DNA of 64,000 nt from an uncultured Anaerolineaceae bacterium (GCA_964579825.1 CAZOHT010000011.1:9220-73219); one strand, 5' to 3'. Shown: positions 1,135 through 54,538, counted from the stretch's first letter. The notes: a model not told the origin generated them from the letters alone. Made by a program: numbers and translations.

Positions 1135-1378
1135 AGGTCTTGCCCGAAGGGGCCGACAGGAACGAAGGACCCGAGATCACATCAAGGACTCTTCGTTCCA
1201 CCGCCGGTCGCTTCGGGCGCTTCGTTGCTCGCGATGTGCCGCCGTCTCACCACGGCGCGCCGTTCGGGTCCGCGCCCGACGGGACGTGATCGGCATCCCG
1301 GTGTCGATACTTCCGTCGGGCCGACGAAGCCGCGGGCCTCGGCCGTCTATCCCCTGGACGCGTTTCCTGGAGGCCCGC

Positions 1379-2254
1379 ATGTCCCCATCGGCTGACCCCA
1401 TCGACCCCGCCCGCCGGATCGTGCCGGCCGATCAGCCGGCGCTGATCGCGGCCCTCGCCGCGGCGGTCCGGGCTCGCACCGACCTCGTCCCCGAGGTGGG
1501 GATCGTGCTCGGTTCCGGCCTCGGCGGCCTGGCCGACGACCTCGAGGACGGCGTCGCCATCCCGTTCGCCGACCTGCCCGGCTGGCCGGCGGCGACGGCG
1601 CCCGGGCACGCCGGCCGGCTCCTGCTGGGGCGACTCGGCGGACGGCCCGTGGTCATGCTCCAGGGACGCTTCCATCTCTACGAGGGCAACCATCCGGGCC
1701 TGGTCATCCAGCCGGTCCTGCTGTTCAAGAGGCTGGGAGCGTCCGTCGTGATCCTCACCAACGCCGCGGGTGGGCTGGACCCGAGCTTCGGGCCGGGAAC
1801 GTTGATGGTCATGTCCGACCACATCAACCTGACCGGCATGAACCCGCTGATCGGACCGAACGCCGAGGGCCTGGGCGAGCGCTTCCCCGACCTGACAGAT
1901 GCCTGGAGTCCGCGCTTGCGGCGGGCCCTGCACGCCGCCGGGCTGGCCGAGGATGTCGCGCTGGCCGAGGGCGTCTACGTCGGCCTGACGGGACCCAACT
2001 ACGAAACGCCGTCCGAGGTTCGGATGCTGGCTGCGCTCGGTGGCCACGCCGTCGGGATGTCGACCGTGCTCGAGTGCATCGCCGCGCGCTGGGTCGGGCT
2101 GGAGGTCTGCGGCGTGTCGCTCGTGACGAATGCCGGGGCCGGCTACAGCGGCGAGCCGCTGACCCACGAGGAGGTGATGGAGGCAGGAGCCATCGCCGGC
2201 CCGCGCCTCGCGAAGGTCATCCGGCGCTTCCTGGCGGACCTGGCGCCCCGCTGA
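1379..2254 (+). CDS. punA: Purine nucleoside phosphorylase (trimeric PNP/MTAP family)
   Basis: ATG at 1379 is preceded by GGAGG (1369..1373). Motifs GIVLGSGLGG, GRFHLYEG and GMSTVLE are present. The longer GTG start at 1286 in the track is judged less likely. Confidence 0.85.
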   Translation: MSPSADPIDPARRIVPADQPALIAALAAAVRARTDLVPEVGIVLGSGLGGLADDLEDGVAIPFADLPGWPAATAPGHAGRLLLGRLGGRPVVMLQGRFHLYEGNHPGLVIQPVLLFKRLGASVVILTNAAGGLDPSFGPGTLMVMSDHINLTGMNPLIGPNAEGLGERFPDLTDAWSPRLRRALHAAGLAEDVALAEGVYVGLTGPNYETPSEVRMLAALGGHAVGMSTVLECIAARWVGLEVCGVSLVTNAGAGYSGEPLTHEEVMEAGAIAGPRLAKVIRRFLADLAPR

Positions 2255-3149
2255 CCGGGGTCGACGGCGACCACCGCGCAGACGTCTGGATGAGCCACAG
2301 GCCCGCGAGGACGAGGACGGCGCCGGCGATGCCGAGGGGCGTGATCGGATCGGCGAGCAACCAGGCCGACAGTCCGACGCCGATGACCGGGACCAGGACG
2401 ATGAAGGCCGCGGCTCGGGCCGACCCGATCCGGCGGATGCCCTCGGAGAAGGTCGCGAAGGCGACCGCCGTCCCGATCACGCCGAGGTAGGCGATACTCA
2501 ACAGGCTCCTCGACGAGGCGCCCAGGAGCGGTTCCCAGCCACGTTCGACGAACGCCAGCGGCGCCAGCATCAGCGTGCCCGTCAACGTGGCGAGCAAGGT
2601 CGCGTGGGCCGGGTGGATCCGGGTCGTGGCGCGCCGCGAGATGAGCGTGTACAGGCCCCACATGATCGCCCCGCCGATGAACATGAGGTCGCCCAGGAGT
2701 CGCTCCGGGCTGCCGCCGATCGCCGGTCCGACGACGAGCACGAGACCGACGAGACCGAGTCCGAGACCGACGGTGCCACGCCGGGCGAGCCGCTCGCCGT
2801 AGGCGATCCGCACGAGGACGGCGGTGACGATGGGCACGAGCCCGGGCGTGATGATGGCGCCGTCGGTCGACGGGGCGAGCGTCACGCCGTACAGGAACAG
2901 GATGTTGTACCCGACCACCGCGGTCGCGCCCATCGCGAACGCGATCGGCAGGTCCGCCCGGAGGATCGGCGTCGGGATGCGGCTGATCCGCGCGAAGGCC
3001 CACAGGCACACCGAGGCGAGCAGGAACCGGACGAACGCGACGGTGAGCGGCGTCACGTCGTCCGTGGCCCACGGTGCCGCGACCCAGGTCCCGGCGAACG
3101 CCACGGCCATCACCGTCAGCAGGGCGTAGGCCGTCCGGTCGCTCGTCAT
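2217..3149 (-). CDS. EamA/DMT-family transporter
   Basis: 310 aa, about 10 hydrophobic helices arranged as two EamA-like halves. Its 3' end overlaps the 3' end of punA by 38 nt (convergent). Confidence 0.8.
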   Translation of the reverse strand: MTSDRTAYALLTVMAVAFAGTWVAAPWATDDVTPLTVAFVRFLLASVCLWAFARISRIPTPILRADLPIAFAMGATAVVGYNILFLYGVTLAPSTDGAIITPGLVPIVTAVLVRIAYGERLARRGTVGLGLGLVGLVLVVGPAIGGSPERLLGDLMFIGGAIMWGLYTLISRRATTRIHPAHATLLATLTGTLMLAPLAFVERGWEPLLGASSRSLLSIAYLGVIGTAVAFATFSEGIRRIGSARAAAFIVLVPVIGVGLSAWLLADPITPLGIAGAVLVLAGLWLIQTSARWSPSTPVSGAPGPPGSAG

Positions 3150-3195
3150 CCGCCCGATGATGCGGCTTCGGTGCGCGACCGCGCTGGGCGCAGCC

Positions 3196-4062
3196 TCAGG
3201 CGACCGGCAGCTCTCGCCCGGCCGCCTTGGCCGCCGCGGCCTTCTCCGACCAGGCCTCCAGGACGCGATCCTTGTGCGGCCGGATGGGGCAGTGGCCGTC
3301 GCGGTTGTTGAACTCGTCGCAGTAACCGAGCGGCACGCACTTCGGAGCGAGGAACGAACCGAGGAACGGCGACACCGTGAAGATCTCGTGCCGGATCAGT
3401 TGGAAGAGCCGACGGATCTCCCACTGGGCCATCGTGCACAGGCGCAATCCGGACATGTGGATCAGGGCGCGCAGATTCGTCGTCATGACCAGGTTCGTGC
3501 GAGTCGCGTTCGGGAAGACGAATCGGGCGTCCTCGCCCGGCACGCCGGCCCCCAGCAGATCGCCGTACAGCCCCAGCGCGCCGTCCACCTGCGTCTCGTA
3601 CCGCTCGCGCAGGTCCGGGTCGCCCTCGGCGATGGAGTGGGGGAGCATCGTCGCGGCGCCCTTGTAGGTCACGTAGCGCTGGCTCTGCTGGTCGAACGCC
3701 ACGCCGGCGCGGTGTCGCACCAGCTGGTGCGACAGGGTTCGGGACACGCCGCTGATGGCGAAGGTGAAGACGACGTGTTCGATCGTGGAACCGTGCCCGG
3801 ATTCGATGACCGAGCTGATCAGCTTCTGCATCTTCTGCGTGTCGAAGTCGCCGGCGACCGAGCGCGAGAAGATGGTCTGCGGGTCCTGCTCCGAATAGCA
3901 GGTCCGGCACGCCGTGTAGATGATCGGGACGTAGAACTTCTCGACGATGTCGCGGTCCGGGAACAGCAGGGTGGCCTGCAGGCCGAGGTCGCGACGACCG
4001 GGGTTCTTCGGGATCCCGGTCTTCTCGCGGGCAGGCTCGGGCGTCGTCGGCTGGGCGGTCAT
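3196..4062 (-). CDS. thyX: FAD-dependent thymidylate synthase ThyX
   Basis: ThyX signature SHQLVRHRAGVAFDQQSQRY (RHR...S.RY). A Cys-containing C-terminal tail, APKCVPLGYCDEFNNRDGHC, is also present. Confidence 0.9.
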   Translation of the reverse strand: MTAQPTTPEPAREKTGIPKNPGRRDLGLQATLLFPDRDIVEKFYVPIIYTACRTCYSEQDPQTIFSRSVAGDFDTQKMQKLISSVIESGHGSTIEHVVFTFAISGVSRTLSHQLVRHRAGVAFDQQSQRYVTYKGAATMLPHSIAEGDPDLRERYETQVDGALGLYGDLLGAGVPGEDARFVFPNATRTNLVMTTNLRALIHMSGLRLCTMAQWEIRRLFQLIRHEIFTVSPFLGSFLAPKCVPLGYCDEFNNRDGHCPIRPHKDRVLEAWSEKAAAAKAAGRELPVA

Positions 4063-4116
4063 CGGAGCGTCAGTCTAGCCCAGCGGCGTGGCCCCGGCGG
4101 CCCGGCCGTCGATCGG

Positions 4117-6861
4117 TCAGCCGTCGGCCTCGTGGCCGGCGCTCGGGGTCGGGCCGTCCTCGCCGAGAGCGTACGCCACGATCTCGTCAAGGCCCATGGC
4201 GGCTCCTTCGGCAGCCAGGCGTTCGAGTTCGCTCGGCTCGATCAGGTCGCGCGGCCGGGCGATCCCGAACAGGTCGAAGTTCTGGTCCACGTAGTCCGCG
4301 AGCATCGTCCCGGTGGTCAGCTGCAGATGGCGGGCGGCTCCCCAGAGTCGCCCGGCGCGGACCGGGTCGCCGGTCGAGAGCGCCACGATGGACAGATCAT
4401 CGAGGGTCAGGGTGACGCCGGACACGTCGCCTGCGTCGAAGAAGTGGCGCAGGGCGTGTCGGCCGTTGGCGAGGCCAGCATCGAACTGCCGCTGTCCGAT
4501 GGCCGACAGGCTCAGCATGTGCATCGACCAGGCCTCCATCGTCCGCTGTCCGGACGCTCGATGCAGCTCGAGCGACGCCGTGTACCAGGGCTCGGCGGCC
4601 GCGGCGTCTCCCATGAAGTAGTGGAAGCTGCCCAGGCCCCACAGGATGTTGCCCTCGCCGGCCGTATCGCCGAGCTCCCGGTACAGGCCGAGGGCTTCCT
4701 CGAGCATCGCCTGGCCCCCGGCGAGGAGATCCGGGTCCATGTGTCCGTTCATGATCTCGATGAGATCCGAATACGACCGGTTGAACAGGGCGTTCGCGAT
4801 CTCGCGCTTGTCGCCGATGGCGCGCCATGTGTCGAGGGCTGCCTGGTACCAATGGGCGGCCGTCGGTTGGTCGGACTGCCAGTAGGCGATGCCGCCGAAC
4901 GCCTCGGCGAATCGGGCGGCCGCGACCGGCTCGAGGTCCCAACCCTTGGCGGCCATGGCATCGAATCGGGCCCGCGCCTCGTGGAGGTAGCCGCGCTGCT
5001 GCCAGAACCGCCACAAGAGGTAGGCGAGATGGGCCGCCACCTGGGGGCGGGGCTCGGCGGTGGCCCAGTCGAGCGCGGCCCGGAGGTTGTCGTGGTCTCG
5101 TTCGAGGCGCTCCAGCCACACACGCTGGTCCGAGCCCGACAGCTGTGGTGCCGCAAGCTCGGCCAGCGCGATCATCGCATCCGCGTGGCGGTCTCGGGTC
5201 TGCGTCGCCTCGCCGCGGGCCTCGAGCATCTCGGCGGCGTATTCACGGATCGTCTCCAGCATGGAGAAACGTGGCTCCGCTGCGTCGTCCCCCATCCGCA
5301 CAAGGCTCTGGTCCAGGAGCTCGCCGATCCGGTCGACGACGTCGCCGCCGACGTCCGCGCCCGGGCCACACACGGCCTCCGCCGTCTCGAGCTGGAACCC
5401 GCCACGAAAGACGGACAGGCGGTCGACGAGGCGGCGAGCGCCATCGTCGAGCAGGTCGTAGCTCCAGGCGATCGCTCCGCGCAGCGTCTGCTGTCGCTCG
5501 GGCAGGTCCCGGGCACCGGTCGTCAGGACGTCCAGGTGGTGCTCGAGCCGGACCAGGATCTGGTCCGGGCTGAGCAGCTTGATGCGGGCCGCCGCCAGCT
5601 CGATGGCCAGCGGCATCCCATGGAGCGTGGAGCTGATCGCGGCCACGGCCGGGGCATTGGCGTTCGTCACCGCGAAGCCCGGCTTGACCGACGCCGCTCG
5701 GGCGATGAACAGGCGCACGGCTTCGTACGTCGTCAGCGTCGCCAGGTCGTGCTCGCGCAGGGCGCGTGGCAGGTTGAGCCGGTCCACCTCGGACAGGTGG
5801 CGGGTGTCCGGTGGTGTCGGGAGCCCGGGGACCGGGTACTCCTGTTCGCCCGAGATCCGAAGCGCCACCCGGCTCGTGACCAGGGCCGACAGGTTGGGGC
5901 ACCGGCGGAGCAGCTCCGCGATGGTCGGCCCGGCCTCGACCACCTGCTCGAAGTTGTCGAGCACCAGGAGGACGCGCTCCTCGCCGATCCGGTCGACGAC
6001 CGCGTCCACGGTCGCCCGGACGGCATCGTCGGCCAGGCCCAGGGTCCGGGCGATCGCCGGAGCGACCATGTCGGGGTCCCGGACGGCGTCCAGCGCGATG
6101 AACCAGATCCCGTCCGGATAGTCCTCGGCGGTCGCGGCTGCCACCTGCAGGGACAGGCGCGTCTTGCCCGTGCCGCCCGGGCCGGTCAGCGTCAACAGGC
6201 GGGTGGAGCCCAGCAGTCCGATGGCTTCGGCGAGCTCGCGATCGCGCCCGACGAAGGTCGTGAGCTGGGTCGGCAGGTTGTTCGGGTGGGCGTCGAGGGA
6301 CCGGAGCGGCGGGAAGTCGCGCGGCAGGCCCTCGGCGTCCACCTGGAAGAGGCGCTCGGGCTGGCCGAGATCGCGCAGTCGGTGGCTGCCCAGGTCGCGC
6401 AGGGTGACCCCATCGGGAAGCGAGGCGCCGGCCAGCACCCGGGTCGCATCGGACGCCACGATCTGGCCGCCGTTCGCGACGGACGCGATCCGCGCGGCCC
6501 GATTGATGTCGAGGCCCACGAGACTCTCGCCGGCCAGCTGGGCCTCGCCGGTATTGAGCCCCATGCGGACGCGGATCGGCGCGTCGACCGGCCAGGGTTC
6601 GGCGACGAGGCCGCGCTGCGCCGCGACCGCCGCCGCGAGCCCCTGGCGCGCGCTCGGGAAGACGACGAAGAAGGAGTCGCCTTCGGTGCCCTGTTCGACC
6701 CCGTCGTGGGCCGCGACCGCCGCACGGACGATCGCCCGCTGGCGCTGCCGGAGCTCGCCGTAGCGGGTCGTGCCGATCGCCTGTTCCAGGCGGGTCGATC
6801 CCTGGATATCGCTGAACAGGAAGGTGGCGGTCCGGGGCATCGCCGCCCTCTGGTCGGTCAT
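4117..6861 (-). CDS. Class III nucleotide cyclase fused to a P-loop (STAND-like) NTPase and TPR-like repeats
   Basis: The N-terminus carries FLFSDIQGST, GDSFFVVF, RMGLNTGEA and NRAARI (cyclase homology domain). This is followed by FVGRDRE...LTGPGGTGKTRL (Walker A) and about 450 aa of helical, TPR-like repeats. No C-terminal HTH is visible. Confidence 0.85.
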   Translation of the reverse strand: MTDQRAAMPRTATFLFSDIQGSTRLEQAIGTTRYGELRQRQRAIVRAAVAAHDGVEQGTEGDSFFVVFPSARQGLAAAVAAQRGLVAEPWPVDAPIRVRMGLNTGEAQLAGESLVGLDINRAARIASVANGGQIVASDATRVLAGASLPDGVTLRDLGSHRLRDLGQPERLFQVDAEGLPRDFPPLRSLDAHPNNLPTQLTTFVGRDRELAEAIGLLGSTRLLTLTGPGGTGKTRLSLQVAAATAEDYPDGIWFIALDAVRDPDMVAPAIARTLGLADDAVRATVDAVVDRIGEERVLLVLDNFEQVVEAGPTIAELLRRCPNLSALVTSRVALRISGEQEYPVPGLPTPPDTRHLSEVDRLNLPRALREHDLATLTTYEAVRLFIARAASVKPGFAVTNANAPAVAAISSTLHGMPLAIELAAARIKLLSPDQILVRLEHHLDVLTTGARDLPERQQTLRGAIAWSYDLLDDGARRLVDRLSVFRGGFQLETAEAVCGPGADVGGDVVDRIGELLDQSLVRMGDDAAEPRFSMLETIREYAAEMLEARGEATQTRDRHADAMIALAELAAPQLSGSDQRVWLERLERDHDNLRAALDWATAEPRPQVAAHLAYLLWRFWQQRGYLHEARARFDAMAAKGWDLEPVAAARFAEAFGGIAYWQSDQPTAAHWYQAALDTWRAIGDKREIANALFNRSYSDLIEIMNGHMDPDLLAGGQAMLEEALGLYRELGDTAGEGNILWGLGSFHYFMGDAAAAEPWYTASLELHRASGQRTMEAWSMHMLSLSAIGQRQFDAGLANGRHALRHFFDAGDVSGVTLTLDDLSIVALSTGDPVRAGRLWGAARHLQLTTGTMLADYVDQNFDLFGIARPRDLIEPSELERLAAEGAAMGLDEIVAYALGEDGPTPSAGHEADG

Positions 6862-6883
6862 CCGGCCGCTCCTCCGGCGCCGC

Positions 6884-7312
6884 TCAGTGCCGATCCGCCT
6901 CGGTCAGGTCGCGCAGCCGGCCGGCCAACCCGCGCAGGATGGCGAGGGCGACGCCGGGCTGTTCCCGGACGACCGCCTCGAAGTCCCAGGTGGAGAGTGC
7001 CAGGCAGGTCGTCGCCGCCGTGGCCACGACCTGCGCGGTCCTGGGCCGGCCGTCCAGCACGGACAGCTCACCGAAGAAGTCGCCGGGCCCCAGGGTCGCG
7101 AGCTGGCGTCCGTCGCGGGTCACCCGGGCCATCCCCTCGGTGATCACGAAGAATCCGCTGCCGATGTCGCCCTGGCGGGCGATGACATGGCCCGTCGGGA
7201 AGTCGACCTCGATCGCGATCTCGGCGATCCGCTCCATCCCGGCCGCGTCGACGCCGTCGAACAGGCGTGCGGACGCCAGCAGCTCGGTCCGCCGCTCGGG
7301 GGTCAATGCCAT
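6884..7312 (-). CDS. Stand-alone cyclic-nucleotide-binding (CAP/CNB) domain protein
   Basis: 142 aa. The phosphate-binding cassette FFGELSVLDGRPRTAQVVA is present. ATG at 7312 is preceded by GGAGGTGG; the track start at 7336 lies upstream of that SD. The protein ends right after the CNB domain with no HTH. The gene stops 22 nt upstream of the cyclase gene. Confidence 0.8.
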   Translation of the reverse strand: MALTPERRTELLASARLFDGVDAAGMERIAEIAIEVDFPTGHVIARQGDIGSGFFVITEGMARVTRDGRQLATLGPGDFFGELSVLDGRPRTAQVVATAATTCLALSTWDFEAVVREQPGVALAILRGLAGRLRDLTEADRH

Positions 7313-7392
7313 CTGGGGTCCACCTCCAACGGCCATGCTGCGCCGTGCGGGGGAGGGCCGTCAACCGAGCGCGAGAGGCGTACGATGCGACG

Positions 7393-7815
7393 ATGTCCGA
7401 CCGAGATGCCCTGGTGGATGCGATCGCCGGGTTCAGCCTGTTCGCGGACCTCACCGATCCCCAGCTCGAGCGAGTCGTCCACACCTTCGAGGAGACGGTC
7501 TACCCGGCCGGGGAGCGCGTCCTGCGCCAGGGGATGGGCGGATCGGGGTTCCACGTCATCCTCGAGGGCGAAGCCGCCGTGATCGTGGACGGGACCGAGC
7601 GGGCCCGGCTGGGTCGCGGGGAGTTCTTCGGCGAGGTCGCCATCCTCCTCGGCGAATCGCCCATCGCGGATATCACCGCGACCTCCACCCTCCGCTGCCT
7701 GCTCCTCTCCGGCCCGGCCGTCGAGGGATTCCTGGTCGAGCACCCCAGGGTCATGTACCGGATGCTCCAGGTCCAGGCCAGGCGCCTGCGCGCCGCGAAC
7801 CGATGGCGGAGCTGA
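7393..7815 (+). CDS. Stand-alone CNB-domain protein with a non-canonical phosphate-binding cassette
   Basis: 140 aa. The cassette reads FFGEVAILLGESPIADITA, so the usual Arg is replaced by Ile. ATG at 7393 is in the track frame. The stop overlaps the start of the next gene. Confidence 0.75.
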   Translation: MSDRDALVDAIAGFSLFADLTDPQLERVVHTFEETVYPAGERVLRQGMGGSGFHVILEGEAAVIVDGTERARLGRGEFFGEVAILLGESPIADITATSTLRCLLLSGPAVEGFLVEHPRVMYRMLQVQARRLRAANRWRS

Positions 7816-9311
7816 ACCGGCCGTTCCCGCCGGGCGAGTACCCGGTGATCGTCGTCGGCAGCGGGCCGGGGGCCCTGCAGACGTCCTACTCGCTGCGACG
7901 CTCCGGCGTGGCTCACGCCGTCCTGTCCGCGGACCCGACGCCCGGCGGCATGTTCCGGCGCTGGCCGCACTTCCAGCGACTCCTGTCCTGGACGAAGCCG
8001 CATGCGCCGGTCCCCCGGACCGACCGGACGTACGGGCGGTTCGATTGGAACAGCCTCCTGGCGGAGGAGCCCCAGGCCGCCAACCTCCAGCCGGATCTCA
8101 TGGACGGAACGTCGTACTTCCCGTCCCGGCCGGAGATGGAGGCGAACCTGGTCGCGTTCGCCGACCGGGCGCACATCGACGTCCGCTACGGCTGCACCTG
8201 GACCGGGACACGCCAGGAGGATGACGCGCACGGACGCACGTTCGCGGTCGAGACGACCGATGGGACCTATCGCTGTCGGGTCCTCGTCGTGGCGGTCGGG
8301 GTCGCCGAGCCGTTCACGCCGCCGGGCGCCGGCATGGAGCACAGCCATCACTACGCCGACGTCCGGCCGGTCGAGTCGTATGCCGGTCGGCGGGTGCTCA
8401 TCGTCGGCAAGCAGAACTCCGGGTTCGAGTTGGCCAACGGCCTCCTGCCGTGGGCCTGTCAGCTCGTCCTCGTGTCACCGTCGCACGCCAAGCTGTCGGT
8501 CGACACGAAGACGCTCGTCGGGGTCCGCGCACGCTACGTCCAGCCGTTCGAGGACCACGTGCTGGGTGGTGGCGTGGCCATCCTGGACGCGGCGCTGGCC
8601 GATGTCTCGCCCACGGCCGACGGCGCGTTGCGGGTCGCGCTCCGACGGACCGACGGCGGCGGCGACCTGGACCTCGAGGTCGACGACGTGATCTCGGCGA
8701 CCGGGTTCGTGACCCCGCTGGTGGACCTGCCCGCCCTTGGGGTCGCGACCTTCGGGGCGAGCCGCCTGCCGGTGCAGACCCCGTGGTGGGAGAGCGCCAC
8801 GGTCCCCGGCATCCGCTTCGCCGGGACGATCGGCCAGGGCGCGAAGGGCCTCCAGCGGCACGGCGTGCCGGCCAACTCCGGGGCCGTCCACGGAGCGCGG
8901 TACAACGCGCGCGTCCTCGCCGCGGACATCGCCGAGCGCGACTTCGGGATCGTCCGGGAGCGGCCGCGCGTCGCCCCGGACGCCGTCGTGGATGTCATCG
9001 TGGACGACCTGGTCGGATCGCCCGACCTGTTCCACCAGCGCGGGTACCTCGCCCGGGTCCTGAGCGTCCATCCGAGCGGTGGGTTCAGCGACGACGGCGT
9101 CCAGCCGCTCGCCCATGTCCTGGATGCCGGCGGACCCGACGCGATCGCGGTGACCCTCGAGGCCGATGGATCCGGGGCCATCTACCCGGTCCTGTACTCG
9201 CGTCGCCGGGGCGCCTCGGCGGACCACACCTTCGAGCCCGACGCCCTGATGCGCTACGACACGCCCGAGGTGCGGCGGGCCATCGGTGACGTGGTCGCCG
9301 GGCTCGGCTGA
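7803..9311 (+). CDS. FAD/NAD(P)-binding oxidoreductase (flavin-monooxygenase-like, two Rossmann motifs) with a C-terminal extension
   Basis: ATG at 7803 is in the frame of track ORF 6939..9311. Motifs VIVVGSGPGA (FAD) and VLIVGKQNSGFE (NAD(P)H) are present. No CxxC redox motif is seen. About 120 aa at the C-terminus are unassigned. The start overlaps the upstream CNB gene by 13 nt. Confidence 0.7.
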   Translation: MAELNRPFPPGEYPVIVVGSGPGALQTSYSLRRSGVAHAVLSADPTPGGMFRRWPHFQRLLSWTKPHAPVPRTDRTYGRFDWNSLLAEEPQAANLQPDLMDGTSYFPSRPEMEANLVAFADRAHIDVRYGCTWTGTRQEDDAHGRTFAVETTDGTYRCRVLVVAVGVAEPFTPPGAGMEHSHHYADVRPVESYAGRRVLIVGKQNSGFELANGLLPWACQLVLVSPSHAKLSVDTKTLVGVRARYVQPFEDHVLGGGVAILDAALADVSPTADGALRVALRRTDGGGDLDLEVDDVISATGFVTPLVDLPALGVATFGASRLPVQTPWWESATVPGIRFAGTIGQGAKGLQRHGVPANSGAVHGARYNARVLAADIAERDFGIVRERPRVAPDAVVDVIVDDLVGSPDLFHQRGYLARVLSVHPSGGFSDDGVQPLAHVLDAGGPDAIAVTLEADGSGAIYPVLYSRRRGASADHTFEPDALMRYDTPEVRRAIGDVVAGLG

Positions 9312-9321
9312 GTCGCGCGCG

Positions 9322-9355
9322 GGGTCGCACGGGGGCCGGACCCGGGGTGCGACCC
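9322..9355. terminator. Hairpin between convergent genes (candidate bidirectional terminator)
   Basis: GGGTCGCAC (9322..9330) pairs perfectly with GTGCGACCC (9347..9355). There is no clear U-tract. Confidence 0.3.
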
Positions 9356-9377
9356 GGGGCGCCGGTCGACGCTCGAG

Positions 9378-10538
9378 TCAGGCCAGGCGGCTGAGTCGTT
9401 CCGCCGCCGCGAGCAGGGTCTCGGTCCGCTTCGGGAAGGCGAACCGCAGCTTGGTCCGGCCGAGCTCCGCCCGCGAGAAGAAGGACGACCCCGGCACGCC
9501 GGCCACACCGGGATCGCGGATCAGGCGCATCGCGTAGGCGACATCGTCCTCGTCGGTGAGGTCGCGGATGTCGGTCATGACGTAGTAGGCGCCGGCGGGG
9601 TCCGAGGCCCGGAAGCCGGCCGACCTGAGGACGGGCAACAGGAGGTCGCGTCGCGCTCGGTAGTCCGCGACGAGCGTCTCGTAGTACGCCCGCGGAAAGC
9701 CGAGTGCGACCACCGCCGCGGCCTGGAGCGGTGCGGCCGCGCCGACCGTCAGGAAGTCATGGACCCGCCGGATGCCGACGCTCAGGTCGGTGGGGGCGAT
9801 CGTCCAGCCGATCCGCCAGCCGGTGACCGAGTACGACTTGGACATGGAGTGGATCTCGACCGTCCGCTCGGCCATCCCGGGCAGGGTCGCGAGTGGCACG
9901 TGCTCGCCCTCGTACACCAGGTGCTCGTAGATGTCGTCGGTGAAGGCGATGACGTCGTGCTCGACGCACAGGCTCGCGATCAGCGCCAGCTCGTCCTGGC
10001 CGAAGACCTTGCCCGTCGGGTTGTGCGGGGAGTTCAGGACGAGCCCGCGCGTCCTCGGACCGAAGGCGGCCCGGAGCTCGGTCTCGTCGATCGACCAGTC
10101 CGGCTCGTGCAACGTGACGTAGCGCGGGATCGCCCCGGCCAGGATCGCATCGGGACCGTAGTTCTCGTAGAAGGGCTCGAACACGATGACTTCGTCACCC
10201 GGGTCCAGCAGGCCCAGCATGGCCGCGACCATCGCCTCGGTGGCGCCGCAGGTGACCGTGACCTGCGTCTCGGGATCGATCGGTCCGTGGGCCGGGAAGT
10301 GGGCGACCGTGGACGACGCGATCGCGTCGCGCAGGGGCTTGGCACCCCAGGTGATGGCGTACTGGTTCAGGTCATCGTGGACGGCCGCCGCGGCCGCCGC
10401 CTTCAACTCCGGCGGGCACGGGAAGTCCGGGAAGCCCTGAGCCAGGCTGACCGCGCCTTCGGCGACGGCGAGCCGGTTCATCTCGCGGATGACCGATTCG
10501 GTGAAGCGGTCCGCCTTCGCGGAGATCCGTCGTGGCAT
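9378..10538 (-). CDS. PLP-dependent aminotransferase, class I/II
   Basis: 386 aa. It has the SMSKSYSVTGWRIGW pyridoxal-lysine motif and NSPHNPTG. Confidence 0.85.
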   Translation of the reverse strand: MPRRISAKADRFTESVIREMNRLAVAEGAVSLAQGFPDFPCPPELKAAAAAAVHDDLNQYAITWGAKPLRDAIASSTVAHFPAHGPIDPETQVTVTCGATEAMVAAMLGLLDPGDEVIVFEPFYENYGPDAILAGAIPRYVTLHEPDWSIDETELRAAFGPRTRGLVLNSPHNPTGKVFGQDELALIASLCVEHDVIAFTDDIYEHLVYEGEHVPLATLPGMAERTVEIHSMSKSYSVTGWRIGWTIAPTDLSVGIRRVHDFLTVGAAAPLQAAAVVALGFPRAYYETLVADYRARRDLLLPVLRSAGFRASDPAGAYYVMTDIRDLTDEDDVAYAMRLIRDPGVAGVPGSSFFSRAELGRTKLRFAFPKRTETLLAAAERLSRLA

Positions 10539-29201: not shown

Positions 29202-30191
29202 ATGATGAACGCCATCGAGACCCGCGACTTGACCAAGCACTACGGTCACGCCCGGCCCATCCATCCGCCGGGCCGGCCCGCGCCGACCGTCGTCCGAGCC
29301 CTGGACGACCTCACGATCGAGGTTCGCGAAGGCGAGATCTTCGGGTTCCTCGGCCCGAATGGAGCCGGCAAGAGCACCGCGATCCGGCTGCTGCTCGGCT
29401 TCCTGCACCCGACCCGAGGCGCCGCGACCGTCCTCGGTCTCGACGCGGTCCGGGAGTCCGTCGAGATCCGACGGCGCGTCGGCTACCTGCCGGGCGGCGT
29501 GTCGTTCTGGGACGGCCTGACCGGGGTCCGACTCCTCGACGAGCTGGCGGCCATGTCCGGGCGGCCGCCCGTGCGCCGCGCCGAGCTCGTCGACCGCCTG
29601 GAACTGACCGAGCGGACGCTGCGCCGGCCGGTGCGCGACTATTCGCGTGGGATGCGCCAGAAGATCGGCATCATCCAGGCCCTGCAGCACGATCCGGAGC
29701 TGGCGGTCCTCGACGAACCGTCCGAGGGCCTCGACCCGCTCATGCAGCGCGCGTTCTACGACATCCTCGACGACCTGCGGGCCGCCGGTCGGACGATCTT
29801 CTTCTCGTCCCACGTCCTGTCCGAGGTGGAGCGCGTGTGCGATCGCGTCGCGATCATCCGCCAGGGCCGGCTCGTCGCGCTCGAGGACGTGACGTCCCTG
29901 CTTGCCAGGCGCAAGCGCAACGTCGAGATCCGGCTGGCCGGACCGGCACCCGTCCTGGACGGCGTCGCGGGCGTCACCGATGTCCGCCGCTCGGACGGGC
30001 TCGTCACGTGTCGCCTGGAGGGAGATGTCGGGCCGTTCCTGGCGGCGATCGCCGGCACGGCCATCTCCGACCTGACCATCGAACCGGCGCGTCTCGAGGA
30101 GGCGTTCCTCGAGTTCTACGAGGACGCCGAGCCGCGGACCGACGATCCGGGGACGCCGCTCGATCCGAACGCCACGGTCGTGCCCGCATGA
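29202..30191 (+). CDS. ABC transporter ATP-binding protein (ABC-2 exporter type)
   Basis: Walker A GPNGAGKST, an SRGMRQK signature variant and Walker B LAVLDEP. Confidence 0.9.
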   Translation: MMNAIETRDLTKHYGHARPIHPPGRPAPTVVRALDDLTIEVREGEIFGFLGPNGAGKSTAIRLLLGFLHPTRGAATVLGLDAVRESVEIRRRVGYLPGGVSFWDGLTGVRLLDELAAMSGRPPVRRAELVDRLELTERTLRRPVRDYSRGMRQKIGIIQALQHDPELAVLDEPSEGLDPLMQRAFYDILDDLRAAGRTIFFSSHVLSEVERVCDRVAIIRQGRLVALEDVTSLLARRKRNVEIRLAGPAPVLDGVAGVTDVRRSDGLVTCRLEGDVGPFLAAIAGTAISDLTIEPARLEEAFLEFYEDAEPRTDDPGTPLDPNATVVPA

Positions 30192-46337: not shown

Positions 46338-47276
46338 ATGACCGACTTCGACCCTGGTTACGATGAGCGCTCGCTCCTGCACGAGCTGGAGCCCGAGGCC
46401 GGGCGGTTGTACGACCGGCACGCCAGGGTCGCGGTGGAATGGTTCCCCCACGACTTCATCCCGTATCGGCTCGGCCGCGACTTCGACAAGGAGCCGTGGA
46501 CCCCGGATCAGCCCCGGCTGACGGGCGTCGCCCAGACCGCGTTCGAGATCGGGCTGCTGACCGAGGACAACCTGCCGAGCTACCACCGGCTCATCCACGG
46601 GATGTTCGGCCGCGGCGATGGCGCGTGGATCAACTGGGTCGGGCGCTGGACCGCGGAGGAGGGTCGTCACGCGATCGTGCTCCGCGACTACCTGACGGTC
46701 ACCCGCAACATCGACCCGATCCTGCTCGAACGGGGCCGCATGACCCAGCTCCAGCAGGGCTACGACCACGACGCGCCGGACACCCTGCACGGGCTGGCAT
46801 ACGTCGCGTTCCAGGAGCTCGCGACCCGTATCGCGCACCGGAACACGGGGCGCTACTCGGACGACCCGGTCGCGGACAAGATCATGGTCCGCATCGCCGC
46901 CGACGAGAACCTGCACATGGTGTTCTACCGCGACATCCTCGCGGCCGCCATCAAGATCGAACCGTCGGCCGCGGTGTGCGCGATCGTCGACGAGGTCCTG
47001 GCATTCCAGATGCCGGGGGCCGGGATCCCCAACTTCATCCGCAAGGCCGCCCAGATCGCGAAGGCCGGGATCTACGACATCCGGGTCCACCGCGAGGACG
47101 TCCTGATGCCGATCATCAAGTACTGGGGCATCTTCGAGCTTGAGGGCCTCAACGCGGCCGCCGAGGCCGCCCGCAAGCGCCTGGCCGAGCATCTCGAGCA
47201 GCTCGATGTCGCCGCGAAGAAGTTCGAAGAGCGCCTCGCGACCTCGACCATCCCGCGGATCGTCTCCGCCGGCTAG
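46338..47276 (+). CDS. desA: Acyl-ACP desaturase (soluble di-iron, DesA-type)
   Basis: The di-iron motifs are present in TAEEGRHAIVLRDYL and AADENLHMVFY. ATG at 46338 is in the track frame. Confidence 0.85.
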   Translation: MTDFDPGYDERSLLHELEPEAGRLYDRHARVAVEWFPHDFIPYRLGRDFDKEPWTPDQPRLTGVAQTAFEIGLLTEDNLPSYHRLIHGMFGRGDGAWINWVGRWTAEEGRHAIVLRDYLTVTRNIDPILLERGRMTQLQQGYDHDAPDTLHGLAYVAFQELATRIAHRNTGRYSDDPVADKIMVRIAADENLHMVFYRDILAAAIKIEPSAAVCAIVDEVLAFQMPGAGIPNFIRKAAQIAKAGIYDIRVHREDVLMPIIKYWGIFELEGLNAAAEAARKRLAEHLEQLDVAAKKFEERLATSTIPRIVSAG

Positions 47277-54277: not shown

Positions 54278-54538
54278 CGGTCCACCTCCTGTTCGGCAAC
54301 CCGGCTACCTGCGAGAGGCCCGTGGCTTTGCGTCCCCGCCTCGCGACGGGTTTGCCATTGTCGGTCGGTCCGCGCCGGGGGACGACGTTGACCGACGTCA
54401 CCAGCGTACGGCCCCGACGACCGAACGCGCGAGAGGCAAAGACGGACTACGGCGACCCCGTACATTCGGGCGCCGCGACCGCTCGACGGCGGTCGTCGGG
54501 ACCGTCGGGCCCGTGGCCTCGCCGTGTATGGTCGGTCC

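Follow-up and report, generated by a model that had tools for sequence, protein, structure and literature searches.

A candidate cyclic-nucleotide signalling locus of Ca. Limnocylindria: a cyclase-STAND protein, two stand-alone cyclic-nucleotide-binding proteins and a flavoprotein

Most bacterial cAMP receptors whose output is known are transcription factors of the Crp type, and a few are enzyme fusions, such as the mycobacterial acetyltransferase Pat, or channels. The class III cyclases are active only as dimers, and one of them, mycobacterial Rv0386, makes cAMP and, to some extent, cGMP; in proteins of its type the cyclase is followed by an NTPase/helical module and a C-terminal LuxR helix-turn-helix (HTH). 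An NTPase-TPR chassis is also found in the STAND regulators of the AfsR/MalT/PknK type, with a SARP DNA-binding domain or a Ser/Thr kinase as the N-terminal output in AfsR/PknK-type proteins, and Pycsar anti-phage systems place a class III-like cyclase gene beside a gene for a protein containing a cyclic-nucleotide-binding (CNB) domain. The locus considered here, at positions 4117-9311 of a 64,000-nt stretch of DNA from an uncultured Anaerolineaceae bacterium (GCA_964579825.1 CAZOHT010000011.1:9220-73219; this whole stretch is termed the window below), has four genes, which encode a cyclase-STAND protein (CYC), two proteins that comprise a CNB domain only (CNB1 and CNB2), and a two-Rossmann flavoprotein (FLAV). 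With a probability of roughly 0.55, we read this module as a chromosomal, vertically inherited cyclic-nucleotide signalling circuit with the flavoenzyme as its output. The four genes are as follows.

4117-6861, minus strand: CYC, predicted class III cyclase with STAND NTPase, winged helix and TPRs (914 aa; GC3 0.90)
6884-7312, minus strand: CNB1, stand-alone protein predicted to bind cyclic nucleoside monophosphates (cNMP) (142 aa; GGAGG 9 nt before the ATG)
7393-7815, plus strand: CNB2, stand-alone CNB protein with an Arg-less cassette (140 aa)
7803-9311, plus strand: FLAV, two-Rossmann flavoprotein (502 aa)

The window has a GC content of ~70%, and one reading frame per place was chosen by the GC content of third codon positions (GC3), which at 0.90-0.93 singles out all four proposed frames. 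The gene positions given in an initial annotation of this DNA were thereby borne out, as were its spacings (22 nt between CNB1 and CYC, a divergent gap of 80 nt, and a 13-nt overlap of CNB2 and FLAV) and its quoted motifs (FFGELSVLDGRPRTA, GPGGTGKTRL, ESPIADITA and VEQGTEGDSFF), all of which are found in the translations. The locus holds the sole cyclase-homology domain and the sole two CNB domains of the whole window.

Homologs of CYC number more than 8000, and the best 120 of them are ~914 aa in length with 66-100% identity; the Joint Genome Institute (JGI) name for such homologs is 'predicted ATPase/class 3 adenylate cyclase'. Among species-representative genomes, at least 590 proved in a scan to encode CYC; of the 80 loci that were fetched, almost all come from Chloroflexota of the class Ca. 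Limnocylindria, and a few bins bear other labels. The order FLAV<CNB2|CNB1>CYC is shared by almost all of these 80 loci with enough flanking sequence, down to 50% CYC identity; the exceptions are two loci that contain neither CNB2 nor FLAV (L042 and L058) and one without CNB1 (L066). The projected gap between CNB1 and CYC has a median of 20 nt and a maximum of 82 nt (76 loci), and CNB2 and FLAV overlap in 73 of 104 pairs and lie within 30 nt in 95 of 104. The gap between CYC and the neighbouring thyX gene extends up to 3.3 kb and exceeds 500 nt in 20 of 63 loci; insertions pile up outside the four-gene block, not between its genes. The four-gene neighbourhood, treated as one unit in the initial annotation, is co-conserved in relatives, and nearly all Ca. 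Limnocylindria, an uncultivated class that is abundant in soil and freshwater, possess the module.

Loci outside this canonical arrangement were collected with a FLAV-anchored metagenome scan and with scans using home-made hidden Markov models. In all 43 metagenomic loci whose sequence extends upstream of FLAV, the gene immediately before it is of the CNB2 type and encodes an Arg-less x-P-x-A-D signature, and the CNB2-FLAV pair occurs at >70% identity in many assemblies of Gaiellaceae (Actinomycetota); the genetic link between these two genes is far stronger than the window alone could tell. The surroundings of the pair are rearranged among these loci, but in most cases a class III cyclase gene is its neighbour. 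Cyclases of different families are found beside the pair in other gene orders, i.e. as CNB2>FLAV>CYC (L099, L101), as CYC<|>CNB2>FLAV without CNB1 (L103, L108, L134), as a 466-aa canonical Lys/Asp cyclase encoded divergently upstream of the pair (L107, L115), as a cyclase just downstream of it with Lys/Thr (L105) or Arg/Thr (L118) at the substrate positions, as a nearby Lys/Asp cyclase (L094), and as AAA_16-TPR cyclases (L113, L115). The density of cyclase domains is 1.24 per 10 kb up to a distance of 3 kb from the pair and 0.18 per 10 kb at greater distances (19 vs 2; p ~0.001 in a binomial test). Such recurrent attachment to cyclases is expected if CNB2 is a subunit of FLAV that receives a cNMP signal, either itself or by way of CNB1. 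In evolution the unit is the CNB2-FLAV pair, joined repeatedly but not obligatorily to cyclases, and in Limnocylindria to the CNB1-CYC operon.

A further contig, L092 (3885-8482), encodes a 1039-aa CYC homolog (35% identity over 833 aa) whose gene overlaps by 4 nt that of a FLAV homolog with the motif GKQNSG, and no CNB gene is present. The CYC homolog comprises an N-terminal DUF4062, a degenerate cyclase-like domain (TTDVADAR, DADRD), the NTPase, HTH_77 and TPRs. The coupling of a DUF4062-STAND protein to a flavoprotein was seen on this single contig; a metagenome scan anchored on P0250 for more loci of this kind yielded none closer than ~45%. The genes upstream on L092 encode an AfsR-like SARP protein and a BBE-type FAD oxidase.

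For CYC itself, the following domains are predicted.

6334-6828, minus strand: cyclase-homology domain, aa 12-176 (metal ligands D18 and D62; transition-state residues N120 and R124; substrate positions G58 and S113)
5827-6273, minus strand: STAND nucleotide-binding domain, aa 197-345 (Walker A GPGGTGKT, Walker B LLVLDNFE)
5182-5826, minus strand: winged-helix/helical arm, aa 346-560 (PF25872, HTH_77)
4282-5181, minus strand: putative TPR sensor region, aa 561-860 (matches to TPR_12, PF13424; resembles the TPRs of LGN/Pins)

The order of cyclase, P-loop NTPase and TPR-like repeats given in the initial annotation agrees with the domain matches, which in Pfam comprise AAA_22, AAA_16 and NACHT-like models at aa 200-335, TPR_12, and in addition nSTAND1 and NB-ARC models. 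PF25872 and PF13424 are also precomputed for P0001, a database protein identical to CYC, and PF25872 is the internal winged helix typical of such STAND proteins. No LuxR or other HTH was detected at the C-terminus with Pfam and NCBIfam, as had been stated before. The nearest solved NTPase module is that of AfsR (8k60, E 1.6e-8), and K233 and T234 of Walker A, D302 of Walker B, and the string LLVLDN are invariant in 76 CYC orthologs. The cyclase-homology domain scores 21.6 bits with the Pfam Guanylate_cyc model, just below the cut-off of 21.9, and matches the solved Ma1120 cyclase with E 1e-13 as a single sequence and 9e-25 as an ortholog profile; matches to Rv1900c/LipJ, CyaB and trypanosome cyclases were also obtained. 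Similarity to Ma1120 confirmed the prediction of an N-terminal class III cyclase despite the sub-cut-off Pfam score. Across the 76 orthologs D18, D62 and R124 are unchanged, and at position 120 the Asn is kept in 65 and replaced by His in the other 11. The mean column conservation is 0.74 in the arm and 0.63 in the TPR part, compared with 0.71-0.74 in the other domains.

Close to CYC in layout is the Rv0386 type, for which WP_015297828 of Mycobacterium sp. JS623 (L090), a protein encoded on a mycobacterial plasmid and annotated as LuxR family, served as the example. It shares with CYC the N-terminal class III cyclase with VEQG(x)EGDSF and the same NTPase/helical module (43% identity in the cyclase domain, 37-38% over aa 11-758), and the likeness to Rv0386 noted in the initial annotation holds at this level, with VEQGEGDSF in the mycobacterial cyclase-ATPase-LuxR protein and VEQGTEGDSF in CYC. 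CYC differs in having one extra residue before GD, which puts Gly instead of Gln at the Lys position (the substrate pair of Rv0386 we take to be Gln/Asn, and the JS623 homolog shows Gln at this position), in being flanked by dedicated CNB proteins, and in lacking the C-terminal LuxR HTH; the output of CYC therefore cannot be direct DNA binding. The NTPase-TPR chassis is also common to the AfsR/MalT/PknK-type regulators, with a partial AfsR match in NCBIfam and 35% identity over the NTPase-TPR part to Rhodococcus proteins annotated as 'protein kinase'; a nucleotide cyclase takes the place of their SARP or kinase output. The full layout recurs in a cyclase-NTPase-TPR protein encoded on a Sinorhizobium meliloti plasmid (L089; 33% identity over aa 10-903), beside an insertion sequence element and with no CNB or flavoprotein gene listed adjacent in a gene table that is incomplete. 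The predicted chassis of CYC is a known one, the STAND type of AfsR/MalT/PknK/Rv0386, here with a cyclase as the output domain and without a DNA-binding domain at its end, and CYC is a new member of the known cyclase-STAND-TPR architecture.

Both CNB proteins match the Pfam model cNMP_binding only (E 2.9e-21 for CNB1 and 5.4e-13 for CNB2) and stop after the C-helix, with no HTH_Crp in either as tested with Pfam. Their length of ~140 aa is kept in 67-68 orthologs, and the possibility raised in the initial annotation, that they are truncated Crp/Fnr regulators, is contradicted by these conserved stand-alone proteins of constant size. The phosphate-binding cassette of CNB1, FFGELSVLDGRPRTA (F79-V95, with Arg91), is complete and canonical, and FFGELS..D..PR.A is kept in 68 CNB1 orthologs. 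CNB2 has no cassette Arg despite its domain match: the cassette (F78-I94) carries Pro90 instead, inside an x-P-x-A-D signature that is conserved in ~100 CNB2 homologs, all of them without the Arg. The replacement of the Arg had been recognized before, and in the alignment with R91 of CNB1 the replacing residue is Pro90, not Ile91. The best NCBIfam match of both proteins is the CNB part of the acetyltransferase Pat (E 4e-10 and 1.4e-8). Mycobacterial Pat (Rv0998/MSMEG_5458) is a fusion of CNB to a GNAT acetyltransferase, in which the CNB domain regulates an enzyme rather than a DNA-binding domain, as is proposed here; unlike in Pat, CNB2 is a separate polypeptide, has a flavoprotein as partner, and lacks the phosphate-binding Arg. 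Fusions of CNB to a flavoprotein (P0263, P0338 and P0357, from a library at 50% identity) were set aside as probable frameshift artefacts, because in L082, which encodes P0357 and was the only fusion locus examined, the neighbouring genes on a long-read metagenome contig are frameshifted and the adjoining cyclase gene is in pieces.

FLAV matches Pyr_redox_3 of Pfam at aa 16-341 (E 3.9e-21) and has the N-terminal FAD motif GSGPGA; two further features distinguish the protein.

8406-8423, plus strand: second Rossmann motif GKQNSG of FLAV, aa 202-207, in place of GxGxxG
8949-9308, plus strand: family-specific C-terminal domain of FLAV, aa 383-502 (~120 aa)

The AlphaFold2 model of FLAV (pLDDT 90) has as its nearest folds in Foldseek YpdA/Bdr (7a76, E 1.8e-20), type II flavin-containing monooxygenases (FMOs) and TrxR-like FNRs, at 14-22% identity, including matches to 4usr (the type II FMO SMFMO), 3d1c and 4a9w. 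The two-Rossmann fold is common to FLAV and these enzymes (E 1e-18 to 1e-20; TM-score, normalized to target length, 0.73-0.79 over the first ~385 columns); FLAV differs from them in having no CxxC, no YpdA-type Cys in the FAD motif, a GK[Q/R]NSG motif, and the extra C-terminal domain. This domain, when modelled alone, is predicted with confidence as alpha/beta (pLDDT 92), is shared by more distant FLAV homologs of ~520 aa, and has no fold neighbour in the PDB (no match better than E 0.13). The only fairly conserved Cys of the family, C131, is not invariant. A disulfide-reductase mechanism was rejected, and the JGI name 'thioredoxin reductase' for FLAV orthologs is unsupported, both for want of a CxxC and of an invariant Cys. 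The second GxGxxG/A motif for NAD(P)H is replaced in all CNB2-partnered FLAVs by GK[Q/R]NSG, i.e. the second Gly is exchanged for Gln or Arg (rarely Met or Glu); FLAV homologs of 28-36% identity without a CNB partner keep GKGNSA. These more distant homologs lie in biosynthetic-looking contexts (a radical SAM gene with a 38-aa peptide and a Rieske protein; a non-ribosomal peptide synthetase; a nitroreductase), no CNB gene is located beside any of those examined, and they allow no functional transfer beyond 'tailoring-type flavoenzyme'. A locus of Myxococcales (L081), in which a Trans_reg_C-NB-ARC-TPR protein is encoded two genes upstream of a distant FLAV homolog, was given no weight, the NTPase similarity being generic (30% over 357 aa).

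Genes near the CNB2-FLAV pair outside Limnocylindria were also recorded. In two of three long Gaiellaceae-related contigs, E1alpha, E1beta and lipoyl-protein genes lie upstream of the pair and a convergent gene for an HxlR regulator lies downstream. In L146 (4090-10132) the pair stands last, after genes for E1alpha, E1beta and a ~520-aa hexapeptide-repeat protein with a lipoyl domain; in L147 the hexapeptide-repeat protein has 457 aa and two other genes are located between it and the pair, and L113 and L119 were considered together with these two contigs. As this context hints, the flavoenzyme may have a role connected with thiols, lipoyl groups or redox stress. In L105 and L118, three genes of NuoL/M/N-like (Mrp antiporter-type) proteins and one for a class I pyridine-nucleotide disulfide oxidoreductase with dimerisation domain precede the pair, and a small cyclase-domain gene follows it.

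For the operation of this circuit, we infer from the above an activation of CYC by oligomerisation, a nucleotide, ligands and contacts for CNB1 and CNB2, and a reaction of the flavoenzyme, as follows. CYC would be an AfsR/MalT-type STAND switch, the TPR and winged-helix part of which senses an endogenous ligand or protein, and ATP-dependent oligomerisation would pair its N-terminal Rv0386-like cyclase domains into the dimers needed for catalysis; this step is suggested by known STAND behaviour and by the dimer requirement of class III cyclases. The product would most likely be cAMP, possibly with some cGMP. CNB1, co-transcribed with the cyclase, would be a bona fide cNMP receptor working through contact with another protein: it would either feed back on the cyclase or pair with CNB2 via the C-helix. 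CNB2 would be a dedicated regulatory subunit of FLAV, acting like the CNB domain of Pat on its acetyltransferase but in trans, and the regulated enzyme would be a flavoprotein of the YpdA/FNR/type II FMO fold with a remodelled second dinucleotide site. A private second-messenger circuit controlling a redox enzyme, one of the two possibilities raised in the initial annotation, is the best-supported reading, given the tie between CNB2 and FLAV and the co-conservation of the four genes.

Several observations weigh against this reading. The flanking genes (thyX, purine nucleoside phosphorylase, S15 peptidase and aminotransferase) are also syntenic, and much of the conservation within Limnocylindria could be mere inheritance; the loci behind the cyclase enrichment are not phylogenetically independent. 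No cyclase is encoded within 8 kb of the pair in the three long Gaiellaceae-related contigs, nor nearby (7-8 kb) in four of nine long metagenomic loci (L100, L121, L142 and L143). CNB1 is missing from several arrangements of a cyclase with CNB2 and FLAV, and its role is the least constrained. CNB2, without the phosphate-binding Arg, may bind no cyclic nucleotide. For CYC, the sub-cut-off Guanylate_cyc score and substrate-determining positions that are non-canonical and variable have to be added.

Much of this would also be accounted for by two unrelated operons that are neighbours by descent, with CNB1-CYC as a self-contained cAMP unit, and CNB2-FLAV as an enzyme with a CNB-fold subunit that binds a non-cyclic-nucleotide ligand or nothing. 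The Arg-less cassette of all ~100 CNB2 homologs fits this explanation, as do the general flank synteny in Limnocylindria and the pairs without a nearby cyclase, both in the four metagenomic loci named above and in the Gaiellaceae-type loci, where the pair follows the E1alpha/E1beta/lipoyl-protein genes and faces the HxlR regulator gene. We regard it as unlikely, though worth serious consideration: cyclases of different families recur beside the pair in rearranged orders, the CYC homolog of L092 is translationally coupled to a FLAV homolog, and insertions build up around the four-gene block, not inside it.

A second alternative is that the cyclase-homology domain is a dimerisation or pseudo-enzyme module, or makes another product, and that the CNB proteins answer a different ligand. 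In the alignment, Gly58 and Ser113 of CYC occupy the places at which Ma1120 has its ATP-specifying Lys and Asp, and neither canonical purine pair (Lys with Asp/Thr for ATP; Glu with Cys/Ser for GTP) is present. Among orthologs and close homologs position 58 is G, S, N, Q, K, R, A or D, and position 113 varies too, while E56, T59 and E60 beside position 58 are invariant in the 76 orthologs. These features are in line with the alternative, as are the Guanylate_cyc score, the His found at position 120 in some orthologs, and the clearly degenerate domain of the L092 relative. It is nevertheless improbable in view of the invariant metal-binding Asp pair and transition-state Arg, the 43% identity to the cyclase domain of the Rv0386-type protein, whose namesake is active, and the complete, canonical cassette of CNB1.

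As to the messenger of the circuit proposed here, the initial annotation had argued against simply assuming cAMP, based on the missing Lys at the GD motif and the missing Arg in CNB2. The Lys is indeed absent from CYC; the argument drawn from it is weakened in that the position varies among homologs (with K and R included) and other partner cyclases are canonical. Since other partner cyclases carry canonical adenylate-cyclase determinants and the Lys position is variable, cAMP is the most economical guess, and, as judged by these residues, the messenger is probably cAMP. The doubts about cAMP are weakened and not removed in the case of CNB2.

In the third alternative, the locus would serve phage defence or another conflict in the manner of STAND/Pycsar systems: the TPR-NTPase part would sense infection, the cyclase would signal, and the CNB proteins would switch on a toxic flavoenzyme, e.g. 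by a drain on NAD(P)H or by reactive oxygen species. The effector-NTPase-repeat layout fits, and in PADLOC both CNB1 and CNB2 give matches to the CNB part of PycTIR models (E 7.5e-16 and 4e-10). The L092 relative has an N-terminal DUF4062, which is a TIR-like NADase of anti-phage systems according to 2026 preprints. The likeness to Pycsar consists of the class III-like cyclase gene beside a CNB-containing gene; CYC does not belong to the PycC family and is much closer to Ma1120 and to Rv0386-type adenylate cyclases, with a PycC match that is marginal (E 4e-4, 17.9 bits, over the 72 residues of aa 11-82), and Pycsar effectors have the CNB fused to a transmembrane or TIR domain, whereas CNB1 and CNB2 consist of CNB only, with no effector domain. 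The comparison with STAND/Avs sensors made in the initial annotation holds for the architecture; it does not extend to an Avs model match or to a patchy or mobile distribution. A defence function is very improbable in view of the fixed chromosomal site beside thyX and the purine nucleoside phosphorylase gene across the class (vertical and class-wide spread, with CYC in the 590 or more species genomes noted above), a TPR region that is barely less conserved than the other domains and not hypervariable, the lack of any Avs or other full-length match in PADLOC (CYC has domain-level matches only, at E 4e-4 or worse), and the near-absence of the FLAV family from plasmids (two of 72,556 plasmid records, at ~30-35% identity).

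Within the signalling circuit favoured here, a more specific proposal can be made tentatively: that Arg-less CNB2 is an obligate trans-acting regulatory subunit of a hitherto uncharacterised flavoenzyme family, the NAD(P)H site of which was remodelled to GK[Q/R]NSG when the partner was gained, and which with class III adenylate cyclases, of the STAND type or other, forms a self-contained cNMP-redox loop, with the TPR-NTPase part of CYC sensing a substrate or product of the flavoenzyme. If true, bacterial cAMP signalling would gain both a novel class of receptor and a novel kind of output, present in Limnocylindria and Gaiellaceae, two lineages that are abundant in soil. Control of a flavoenzyme in trans by a stand-alone CNB protein would by itself be a new output class, and the conservation of the Arg-less cassette across two phyla raises the question of its ligand. 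The near-universal presence of the module in Limnocylindria suggests that it probably governs a core physiological, likely redox-related decision, and CYC would be a natural example of a STAND switch with a diffusible-messenger output that is not an immune system. We know of no regulatory biology for Ca. Limnocylindria. A literature search found nothing on this cluster, on cNMP signalling in Limnocylindria, or on CNB-flavoprotein pairs; the stand-alone CNB pair, the Arg-less CNB2 signature, the strict coupling to a FLAV clade with a remodelled motif, and the recurrent attachment of cyclases are not described in anything found.

The region between the two CNB genes contains motifs that are conserved among orthologous loci.

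7313-7392, unstranded: divergent intergenic region between CNB1 and CNB2 (80 nt)
7335-7344, intergenic region between CNB1 and CNB2: motif ATGCTGCGCC
7359-7364, same region: motif CGTCAA, which on the CNB1 strand reads TTGACG, 17 nt from CAGCAT
7381-7386, same region: motif TACGAT, 6 nt before the ATG of CNB2

The motif ATGCTGCG / ATGCTGCGCC is present in 47 of 83 orthologous intergenic regions (loci L001-L080), CGTCAA and GGCACGATG motifs recur among these regions, and GGCACGATG or TACGAT is located 6-8 nt ahead of the CNB2 start, a position that would suggest a leaderless CNB2 mRNA. These conserved motifs are putative promoter elements; a scan for consensus sigma-70 promoters gave no site in positions 3000-9600 of the window, the divergent gap included. 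In L020 the divergent gap is 462 nt in length (usually ~80-250 nt) and contains a run of GGCGGTGAC repeats.

Other features of the window comprise the thyX gene (3196-4062, minus strand), which lies on the same strand as CYC, 54 nt past the CYC gene, and convergent genes for a purine nucleoside phosphorylase (1286-2254, plus strand) and an EamA transporter (2217-3149, minus strand), which overlap by 38 nt (2217-2254). A c-di-GMP-I-GGC riboswitch aptamer was predicted with Rfam at 54291-54365 (minus strand; 75.3 bits, gathering score 59), and c-di-GMP-dependent regulation is therefore also predicted on the same contig. The Rfam match to ASdes, a mycobacterial small RNA antisense to a desaturase gene, at 46659-46726 (minus strand; 54.6 bits) probably reflects a conserved desaturase coding region and not a small RNA. 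At 92 nt, the tRNA-Gly(GCC) gene predicted by ARAGORN at 29455-29546 (plus strand) is unusually long for its kind.

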